Source: Escherichia coli (GTDB taxonomy: Bacteria > Pseudomonadota > Gammaproteobacteria > Enterobacterales > Enterobacteriaceae). From it: a stretch of 64,000 nt of DNA. Both the position numbers and the translations under genes were made by a program. The notes beneath the pieces were generated by a model, which was not told the DNA's origin, made no database searches, and saw only the letters and a program-made list of their open reading frames with translations. Shown one piece after another: positions 32,663-39,687 of this stretch. Location of the stretch: NCBI RefSeq assembly GCF_003991155.1, contig NZ_CP031293.1; one strand, given 5' to 3'. Within the stretch, counting starts at the first letter, position 1, and every line of letters begins with the position of its first letter.

Positions 32663-32738
32663 TGGTGCTGATAGGCAGATTCGAACTGCCGACCTCACCC
32701 TTACCAAGGGTGCGCTCTACCAACTGAGCTATATCAGC
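32663..32738 (-). tRNA. thrT: tRNA-Thr (GGU)
   Basis: Minus-strand cloverleaf GCUGAUAUAGCUCAGUUGGUAGAGCGCACCCUUGGUAAGGGUGAGGUCGGCAGUUCGAAUCUGCCUAUCAGCACCA. Confidence 0.95.
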
Positions 32739-32744
32739 ACATCT

Positions 32745-32819
<75 letters not shown>

Positions 32820-32935
32820 ATCCTGGAACTCGGCTACCTGATTTTCATTCTGCACTGAATATCGAGAGAAGCTCTCTTTATTCGAGCCGGTAAGCGAACT
32901 TATCGTCTCGGGCTACGCCATCGCGTGGCCGAAAT

Positions 32936-33020
<85 letters not shown>

Positions 33021-33028
33021 GGACTTGA

Positions 33029-33104
<76 letters not shown>

Positions 33105-34444: not shown

Positions 34445-35410
34445 TTATTTTTCCGCACTACGCAGGGATATTTCACCGCCCATCCAGGGTTTTATTATTC
34501 CATCCTGCTCAAGCAATAAAGCGCCCTGTTTGTCTATTCCGCGTGAAATGCCAAATATTTCTTTATCACCAATGATAAGTTTCACTGGGCGATTAATAAA
34601 ATTATCCAGCTTTTCCCAGCGCGAAAGATAAGGTGCCAATCCTTCTTGTTCGAAGAGTTCCAGCGCCGCGCGTAATTCACGTATTAGCATGGCCGCCAAC
34701 GTATTACGATCGAGATTGATCCCCGCTTCCTGCAGCGTGATCCACCCCTGATTAACGACACTCTCTTCAACACGACGCATTGCCATGTTGATCCCGGCTC
34801 CAATGACTATTTGCGCCGCATCGCCGGTTTTACCAGTCAGCTCCACAAGAATGCCTGCCAGCTTGCGATCCTGCAGATAGAGGTCATTAGGCCATTTAAC
34901 ACGAACTTTATCTGCACCCAGCTTGCGTAATACTTCCGCCATCACGATACCGATAACCAGACTTAAACCAATCGCCGCCGCCGGGCCTTGTTCCAGACGC
35001 CAGAACATCGACAAATATAAGTTTGCGCCAAAAGGCGAAAACCATTTCCGACCCCGGCGACCACGGCCAGCCTGCTGGTATTCTGCAACACAGGCATCGC
35101 CCGATTTAAGCTCTCCGATACGATCAAGAAGGTACTGATTCGTGGAGTCAATAACGGGTAGCACAGTTACACTACCGCCATCCAGCTGACCCAATATCTG
35201 TTCAGCATTAAGTAACTGGATAGGCTCAGGCAGGCTGTATCCTTTACCCGGAACGGTAAAGACATCAACGCCCCAGTCACGCAGTGTCTGAATGTGTTTA
35301 TTAATAGCCGCCCGGCTCATTCCTAACGTTTCACCCAACTGCTCACCAGAGTGAAATTCGCCATTCGCTAACAGCGCGATTAATTTCAGCGGAACGGTAT
35401 TATCCTTCAT
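34445..35410 (-). CDS. birA: Bifunctional biotin-[acetyl-CoA-carboxylase] ligase / biotin operon repressor
   Basis: 321-aa [53 protein letters not shown]. Confidence 0.97.
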
Positions 35411-36435
35411 GAAATCGTCTCCACTGCGCTAACTTCACCTGATGCACCAATAAAGCGAACTTCAGGCTCAAGCCAGACATTAAATTTTTCACCCACTTTT
35501 TGTCTTACATGATGTGCCAGTTGCACCACATCTTCGCTTTTTGCATTGTCTTCATTAATAAGGACTAACGCCTGTTGACGGTGCACCGCAGCCCCACCCA
35601 TTTGCATCCCTTTTAGCTGGCACTGATCGATAAGCCAACCTGCTGCCAGTTTTACTGAACCATCCGCCTGGGGATAATTTGGTGCTGTTGGAAATTGTGC
35701 CAGTAATGCTTTAGCCGTTTCGGCAGATACAACAGGGTTTTTGAAGAAACTACCGGCATTGCCATTCACTTTTGGATCAGGGAGTTTGGTGGTGCGCATA
35801 TGACACACCGCATTAAATACTTGCTGTGGCGTTACGGTTGTAGGATCCAGACGAGTTAAGTCACCATACGTTAGTACAGGTTGCCACTCTTTTGGCAGAC
35901 GCAGACCTACGGCTACAATGGCGAAGCGGTCCTGGTATTCATGTTTAAAAACACTGTCGCGATAGCCAAAACGGCACTCTTTGGCAGTTAAGCGCACTTG
36001 CTTGCCTGTCGCCAGTTCAACACAGTCAACATAAGCGCAAACTCGCTGTAATTCTACGCCATAAGCACCAATATTCTGGATAGGTGATGAGCCGACACAA
36101 CCAGGAATTAATGCCAGATTTTCCAGACCAGGCATACCTTCCTGCAAAGTGTATTTTACCAGGCGATGCCAGTTTTCTCCGGCTCCTACATGTAAATACC
36201 ACGCATCAGGTTCATCATGAATTTCGATACCTTTGATCCGGTTGATGATCACCGTACCGCGATAGTCTTCCAGAAAAAGTACATTACTTCCTTCACCCAG
36301 AATAAGAACGGATTGTCCTTTTGCGGTTGCATGCTGCCAGGCATTGAGTAGTTGTTGTTCGTCTTCGGCACATACAATGTGCTGAGCATTATGATCAATG
36401 CCAAATGTGTTCCAGGGTTTTAAGGAGTGGTTCAT
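35407..36435 (-). CDS. murB: UDP-N-acetylenolpyruvoylglucosamine reductase
   Basis: 342-aa [37 protein letters not shown]; overlaps the birA start by 4 nt. Confidence 0.97.
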
Positions 36436-36525
36436 AGCTGCTTTCCTGATGCAAAAACGAGGCTAGTTTACCGTATCTGTGGGGGGATGGCTTGTAGTTA
36501 TGACGACAGGGAGTGTTTGTAGAAA

Positions 36526-36556
36526 CGCAAAAAGGCCCAGTCTTCCGACTGGGCCT
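36526..36556 (-). terminator. rrnB operon terminator (single hairpin)
   Basis: AGGCCCAGTC-GGAA-GACTGGGCCT hairpin followed by TTTTTGCGTTT on the minus strand, 14 nt downstream of the 5S 3' end. Confidence 0.8.
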
Positions 36557-36569
36557 TCTGCTTAATTTG

Positions 36570-36689
36570 ATGCCTGGCAGTTCCCTACTCTCGCATGGGG
36601 AGACCCCACACTACCATCGGCGCTACGGCGTTTCACTTCTGAGTTCGGCATGGGGTCAGGTGGGACCACCGCGCTAAGGCCGCCAGGCA
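36570..36689 (-). rRNA. rrfB: 5S ribosomal RNA
   Basis: 120-nt match to E. coli 5S (UGCCUGGCGGCC...AACUGCCAGGCAU) on the minus strand. Confidence 0.97.
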
Positions 36690-36781
36690 AATTCTGTTTA
36701 TCAGACCGCTTCTGCGTTCTGATTTAATCTGTATCAGGCTGAAAATCTTCTCTCAATCCGCCAAAACACCTTCGGCGTTGT

Positions 36782-39687
<2,906 letters not shown>

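Follow-up and report, generated by a model that had tools for sequence, protein, structure and literature searches.

Among the closest described systems is the dual terminator of Escherichia coli K-12 rrnB, in which two terminators, T1 and T2, lie on either side of rrB. Three dual terminators have been described, and the interval between T1 and T2 has been recognized as a member of the tRNA-linked repeats (TLRs), a group whose defining property is that the 3' end of the gene lying upstream is repeated (Stenum et al. 2021; PMC8144298). Read-through of T1 produces the small RNAs RrA, RrB, and RrF, which bind Hfq and CsrA in vitro and whose conservation is stressed in the same paper, and T1 and T2 have been credited with terminating 87% and 100% of transcripts, respectively (PMC8144298, citing Orosz 1991). 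T1-rrB-T2 is a cassette in standard use in vectors (PMC8144298), in keeping with the original prediction, which had described this region as widely used in vectors. A literature search that left most subscription journals outside its reach returned papers on the dual terminators and rrB and papers on terminator measurements, and none on the presence or absence of the rrnB terminator module in E. coli.

In K-12 MG1655, 300 bp containing two hairpins separate rrfB (end 4171756) from murB (start 4172057). The K-12 DNA that is additional to the locus studied here is an exact 168-bp module that consists of T1 and rrB and has an 18-nt copy of the 5S 3' end as its boundary; the resulting direct repeat has a spacing of 168 bp and an exact core, AACTGCCAGGCATCAAAT, and extends over 30 nt. 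Besides rrnB, the K-12 module also follows 5S at rrnA and at rrnD (after rrfF). Among the other K-12 operons, rrnG has a single T2-type hairpin, rrnE has a terminator of its own, and rrnC and rrnH end in tRNAs. T2 of K-12 rrnB, the distal member of the T1-T2 pair, is said to go back to Brosius et al. in 1981.

The 5S-murB spacer and its terminator

We analyzed a 64,000-nucleotide stretch of E. coli DNA (the window), in which the rrnB operon lies on the minus strand, with 23S rRNA identified by Rfam from position 36782 onward and 5S rRNA, the product of the final rrnB gene, matched by RF00001 at 36572-36687 with 93.2 bits. The next gene downstream is murB, which encodes UDP-N-acetylenolpyruvoylglucosamine reductase, is annotated at the identical locus in RefSeq genomes, and has its ATG at 36435-36433. 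The spacer between the 5S 3' end and this ATG (36436-36569) measures exactly the 134 bp that had been estimated in the original prediction. On the transcribed strand it reads CAAATTAAGCAG-AAGGCCCAGTC-GGAA-GACTGGGCCTT-TTTGCGTTTCTACAAAC, followed by about 85 nt to the ATG, with 12 nt between the mature 5S 3' end and the start of the core stem and 96 nt between the core hairpin and the next gene (Table 1). Elsewhere in the window, a cluster of four tRNA genes on the minus strand at 32666-33104 occupies a position consistent with K-12 thrU-tyrU-glyT-thrT, which precedes tufB, and which we take to reflect ordinary K-12 synteny.

Table 1. Features of the rrnB-murB junction, in window coordinates
Feature	Coordinates	Strand	Basis or description
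murB CDS	35407..36435	-	Translation of 342 aa, start MNHSLKPW
murB upstream block, ACAAGCC ... ATACGGTAAACTAGCC ... TTTTTGCATCAGGAAAGCAGCT (also given ending TTTTTGCATCAGGA)	36436..36500	-	Per-column conservation
U-rich tract TTTTTGCGTTTC, directly 3' of the G+C-rich stem	36522..36533	-	Same as the K-12 T2 tract (alignment)
Extended hairpin, GCAGAAGGCCCAGTC-GGAA-GACTGGGCCTTTTTGC	36527..36561	-	MFE structures, -26.8 kcal/mol in context
Core hairpin, perfect 11-bp stem AAGGCCCAGTC/GACTGGGCCTT with GGAA (GNRA) tetraloop	36532..36557	-	Folding
14-nt apex CAGTCGGAAGACTG	36538..36551	-	Unique in window; comparison with K-12 terminators
18-nt AACTGCCAGGCATCAAAT (final 13 nt of 5S and 5 further nt), where the presence/absence polymorphism is located	36565..36582	-	One match in whole window
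rrfB (5S rRNA, final rrnB gene)	36570..36689	-	Full 120 nt by alignment to K-12 rrfB

The spacer is dominated by one hairpin, preceded by CATCAAATTAAGCAG and followed by TTTTTGCGTTTCTACAAAC, in which 8 of the 11 pairs of the core stem are G-C. The predicted free energy of the 134-nt fold is -36.2 kcal/mol (z = -3.17 against dinucleotide shuffles), and that of the core hairpin alone is -21.3 kcal/mol, compared with -18.3 for K-12 T1 and -17.2 for K-12 T2. In folding predictions the core can lengthen to GCAGAAGG.../...CCTTTTTGC, and the extended hairpin draws on some of the T run for its lower stem, which G-C pairs close; comparable extended stems have been described for rrn terminators (Cambray et al., PMC3643576). 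Across 13 homologous hairpins, a small sample of related sequences comprising E. coli alleles, Escherichia whittamii, Escherichia albertii, and copies of T1, 99.3% of cells were paired and three pairs showed compensatory changes; this degree of pairing was reached by 9 of 500 shuffles, and slid controls gave 15-63%. The element combines the characteristics of an intrinsic terminator, namely, a G+C-rich stem-loop, a 3' U-rich tract, a position at the 3' end of a transcription unit on the transcribed strand, and maintained pairing.

A consensus terminator scan of positions 36000-37200 returned no sites. The same scan applied to K-12 found T1 and missed T2, which is experimentally established, and in both of the elements missed the stem enters the T run; the negative result therefore reflects a limit of the tool and is not evidence against a terminator. 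Rfam searches (at the gathering threshold for the window and by E-value for the K-12 locus) assigned neither the spacer nor rrB to any family, returning only 5S, 23S, and chance matches.

Intrinsic termination, unlike Rho-dependent termination, is not suppressed by the rrn antitermination complex. In the mechanism that we propose, nascent RNA extending past 5S would fold into the perfect 11-bp G+C-rich hairpin with its GNRA loop, extendable to about 15 pairs, and this hairpin, lying directly before UUUUUGCGUUUC, would bring about release of the transcript and insulate murB from the very high level of rrn transcription. The structure itself, the identity of its U-tract to that of K-12 T2, for which the cited efficiency is 100%, and what is generally known of intrinsic termination together suggest that the window allele would terminate rrnB transcription efficiently.

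The murB-proximal part of the spacer lies outside the terminator. Conservation of at least 90% was seen over ACGGTAAACTA in 79 enterobacterial species loci ranging from Escherichia to Erwinia. This block is probably a murB promoter or 5' untranslated region, yet a consensus scan of it returned no sigma-70 promoter.

Alignment to K-12 rrnB, the check proposed in the original prediction, gave 300 bp in K-12 against 134 bp in the window, a net difference of 166 bp, and the structural difference that had been put forward is thus real. The window has one hairpin in its 134 bp, and it has neither rrB nor a second 5S-end repeat: a 30-nt rrB core had no match at up to three mismatches anywhere in the 64 kb, and no second copy of the 18-nt AACTGCCAGGCATCAAAT, and hence no direct repeat, was found in the window. 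Past the alignment gap, the window and K-12 T2 agree in position relative to murB, in the leader (CATCAAATTAAGCAGAAGGCC), the base of the stem, the U-tract, and the tail (GGCCTTTTTGCGTTTCTACAAAC), and over the downstream 100 bp they differ by only three substitutions. They are unlike in the apex, which is CAGTC-GGAA-GACTG (14 nt) in the window and ATCC-TGAC-GGAT (12 nt) in K-12, in the length of the stem (11 bp and 10 bp, respectively), and in that the window hairpin comes directly after 5S.

The apex is instead that of a K-12 T1: it matches the T1 apex of rrnA and rrnD at 14 of 14 positions and is one loop base off that of rrnB, with a stem U.G changed to C-G. The remainder of T1, an A/U-rich lower stem of 20 pairs (ATAAAACGAAAGG.../...CCTTTCGTTTTAT) followed by rrB, has no counterpart in the window. 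The observation in the original prediction of a T1-like stem between T2-like flanks accordingly describes the locus correctly, the apex being that of rrnA/rrnD T1 and the leader and tail being those of K-12 T2. The window shares its architecture with the single 5S-distal terminators of K-12 rrnG, of rrnA and rrnD in strain CREC-544 (see below), and of most enterobacterial rrnB-murB junctions: in all of them 5S is followed by a leader (about 10-20 nt), a single G+C-rich hairpin, and TTTTTGC. Only the sequence of the apex differs, and murB often lies at the same distance (132-134 bp). The slot between rrfB and the distal terminator is the one that the rrA/rrB/rrF TLR sRNAs occupy (PMC8144298), and in the window the sRNA is absent from it.

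Overall, the 134-bp spacer very probably comprises a normal intrinsic (Rho-independent) rrnB terminator together with the conserved region upstream of murB, and its difference from K-12 is the absence of an optional 168-bp module. It is the K-12 tandem that is the special case, carrying an extra piece that the literature has already explained.

Occurrence of the module in E. coli and other Enterobacteriaceae

We surveyed 5,426 complete RefSeq E. coli genomes, a set biased toward clinical and laboratory lineages, so that the numbers that follow are database figures and not natural frequencies. The locus was present in 5,415 of them. The long form, in which the module is joined to the murB-proximal spacer, was found in 2,516 genomes, leaving by subtraction about 2,900 with the short form, and the single-terminator state is thus the commoner one in E. 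coli. The module was found before mobB (rrnA) in 1,168 genomes and before yhdZ (rrnD) in 3,248, which corresponds to occupancies of 22% at rrnA, 46% at rrnB, and 60% at rrnD. The interior of the module was detected somewhere in the genome in 3,975 cases, and 1,451 genomes contained no copy as judged by megablast.

A distal hairpin of the window type was joined to the murB-proximal spacer in 2,204 genomes, a number whose exact division into short and long forms is prevented by the way the search joins nearby pieces; at least 8-12 genomes are long with a T1-like distal hairpin. In an evenly spaced sample, 29 of 30 rows covered the locus, and these consisted of 13 short loci with a T1-like hairpin, 3 short loci with a T2-type hairpin, 13 long loci with a T2-type hairpin, and no long locus with a T1-like hairpin.

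Outside E. coli, a MurB-anchored scan of species-representative genomes yielded 80 loci, of which 46 had a readable junction and 34 broke at the repeat, so that module-bearing loci may be undercounted in these draft assemblies. At 44 of the 46 readable Enterobacteriaceae loci, among them those of Enterobacter cloacae, Phytobacter, Cedecea, Dryocola, E. whittamii, and two further Escherichia lineages, a single terminator came directly after 5S, and the distance to the murB ATG was often 132-134 bp. The module was seen at only two of these 46 loci, those of Kluyvera genomosp. 3 and Citrobacter portucalensis. Across loci, the base of the distal hairpin, AAG[G/C]CC ... GG[G/C]CTTTTTGCG, is conserved and its apex is variable. 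The single-terminator architecture is common, and it is probably ancestral. The direction of change in E. coli, gain or loss of the module, is judged here from these outgroups. The original prediction had treated the single terminator as a strain-level structural difference, with the rarity that this implies; that part of it does not hold, as about 2,900 of 5,415 E. coli loci are short and a single terminator is usual across the Enterobacteriaceae.

Several spacers carry further elements. REP/BIME-like palindromes (GCCGGATGCG...CTTATCCGGCCTAC) lie just past the distal rrn terminator in Citrobacter spp. and in K-12 rrnA and rrnG, and they account for the 5S-murB spacers of 183-262 bp in several Citrobacter. 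In Escherichia sp. MOD1-EC7003, a T2-type hairpin with a REP-like element is separated from murB by about 250 bp, within which is the start of an open reading frame (MDEKQLQALANELAKNLKTPEDLSQFDRLLKK...) that resembles a transposase N terminus; this appears to be an insertion in the spacer.

Alleles of the distal hairpin and the origin of its apex

Hairpin type and module presence occur in all four combinations among the genomes compared. STEC307 is short with a T2-type hairpin, the window and O157:H7 are short with a T1-like hairpin, K-12 is long with a T2-type hairpin, and strain 06-00048 (NZ_CP015229.1) is long with a T1-like hairpin. Because all four exist, the type of apex and the presence of the module are polymorphisms independent of each other. 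The two pairs that match in hairpin type, STEC307 with K-12 and O157:H7 with 06-00048, each differ by exactly the 168-bp module with its 18-nt repeat. Before murB, strain 06-00048 carries an intact T1, then rrB, and then a distal terminator with the T1-like apex; it has two copies of AACTGCCAGGCATCAAAT, also 168 bp apart, and, from the second of these through to the start codon of murB, its sequence matches that of the short O157:H7 allele. Since its T1-like hairpin stands beside T1 and rrB, the hairpin is an allele of the distal terminator that is independent of deletion or insertion of the module.

The T1-like hairpin occurs in several versions. Among short loci, O157:H7 has GGCCCGGTC, JSWP006 has GGCTCAGTC, AF22 has GAGCCC.../...GGGCTT, and THO-003 has a GCGAAAGG leader and a four-T tail. 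Beyond E. coli, it forms the single terminator of E. whittamii (GGCTCAGTC/GACTGAGCC) and of E. albertii (GGCCCGGTC/GACCGGGCC). Comparison of these alleles shows that, at the level of sequence, the window hairpin is a common allele of the terminator in the distal (T2) position and not the product of a fusion between T1 and T2.

One further genome, the BL21-derived Rosetta2-DE3 (NZ_CP083274.1), has a single T2-type terminator between 5S and murB but was set aside as an example, its 5S being truncated at the 5' end and abutting a pseudogene. This neighbor, which occupies the expected place of 23S, is a partial SDR-oxidoreductase pseudogene, suggesting either that most of rrnB has been rearranged or deleted or that the assembly is faulty there.

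As to how the distal terminator acquired its T1-like apex, we tentatively entertain short-patch gene conversion or template switching, by which, in an Escherichia ancestor, the apex of a T1 hairpin from one of the rrn operons may have been copied into the distal terminator of rrnB, replacing an ancestral CCATCC-TGAC-GGATGG. In line with this, the 45 loci with a readable 5S end include 24 with a T2-type distal apex and 19 with apices of other types, a T1-like apex in the single-terminator position was seen only in Escherichia, and outside that genus it was found only within the module itself; the identity to the T1 apex of rrnA and rrnD at all 14 positions points the same way. However, the shared flanks, AAGGC and GGCCTT, are too short for ordinary homologous recombination, apex turnover between genera is free enough that a paralogous donor is not needed, and T1 and the distal hairpin of 06-00048 differ at 3 of 22 positions, so that no recent exchange in cis is visible there.

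We regard it as rather unlikely that T1 and the T1-like distal terminator are instead diverged copies of a single unit, made up of the 5S 3' end, leader, and hairpin, that was duplicated when the TLR module formed. The repeat that bounds the module would fit such a history, as it spans 52 nt at 87% identity in 06-00048, taking in the whole hairpin, and 30 nt in K-12, and the TLRs are by definition marked by repetition of the upstream gene's 3' end (PMC8144298). Common descent of this kind would nevertheless call for a later replacement of the apex in most lineages, because Kluyvera, C. portucalensis, and rrnA, rrnB, and rrnD of K-12 all pair T1 with a T2-type distal apex.

The original prediction had found the window hairpin consistent with a recombination-derived T1-T2 hybrid. 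On that view, a K-12-like T1-rrB-T2 tandem would have collapsed when its two hairpins recombined, leaving, as a strain-level event, one chimeric terminator with a T1 stem and T2 flanks. This reading is now very improbable, even though the apex is that of rrnA/rrnD T1, the tail is that of T2, and MAFFT can place the 166-bp gap between the 3' arm of T1 and the GGCCTTT of T2. A single crossover would have kept the T1 leader, ATAAAACGAAAGGC, whereas the window carries the T2 leader, TTAAGCAGAAGGC; rather than T1-type sequence to the left of one junction and T2-type sequence to its right, the order found is a T2 leader, a T1-like apex of 14 nt, and a T2 tail. Nor is the T1-like distal hairpin confined to loci that have lost T1 and rrB, given that 06-00048 holds all three together. 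The allele is moreover present in about 2,200 E. coli genomes in several variants and in E. whittamii and E. albertii, and a single terminator is the common enterobacterial state. Finally, although the module is repeat-bounded and multicopy in some genomes, its collapse during assembly of this genome is scarcely credible, as the 315-bp junction recurs at at least 99% identity in 266 independent complete genomes, the short form is present in about 2,900 genomes and in readable outgroup loci of four Escherichia lineages, and CREC-544 (NZ_CP024826.1) is identical here over 401 bp and over 21.5 kb of flank.

A lineage without the module at three rrn operons and its implications

A genome identical to the window over 21.5 kb extends these observations to the other operons in which K-12 carries the module. 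Positions 42500-64000 of the window are 100% identical to several complete genomes, CREC-544 among them, and the 401-bp identity to CREC-544 runs across the 5S-murB junction. At rrnA, CREC-544 has a single T2-type terminator 102 bp from mobB, and its interval from rrfF to yhdZ is 62 bp, compared with 228 bp in K-12. Taken together, the CREC-544 spacers at rrnA, rrnB, and rrnD, the three of the seven rrn operons compared, indicate a lineage in which none of the sites occupied in K-12 carries the module. We consider it likely that the window lineage is a natural null for the RrA/RrB/RrF family and, more generally, that these sRNAs are a dispensable accessory whose copy number varies from 0 to 3 or more through gain and loss at the 18-nt repeat of the 5S end. 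If so, natural pairs that are isogenic at this locus (such as O157:H7 and 06-00048, or STEC307 and K-12) could be used to probe the purpose of the sRNAs and of the dual terminators.

The module is present at some loci and absent from others, and the comparisons suggest that it comes and goes. Such turnover would likely take place through recombination between the bounding repeats of 18 to 52 nt or through gene conversion among rrn operons.

The window terminator itself is ordinary and of a known kind, and what is mildly new is only the frequency with which T1-rrB is missing from E. coli. The T1-T2 tandem used in vectors is not the general rrnB terminator of E. coli; it is the distal terminator together with an optional, sRNA-encoding module. 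A hairpin that is naturally single and predicted to be stronger might serve as a compact, sRNA-free terminator part. The finding also bears on the annotation of rrn 3' ends in strains other than K-12, and, with about half of complete E. coli genomes lacking the module at rrnB and roughly a quarter seemingly lacking it altogether, it bears on how essential RrA, RrB, and RrF can be.
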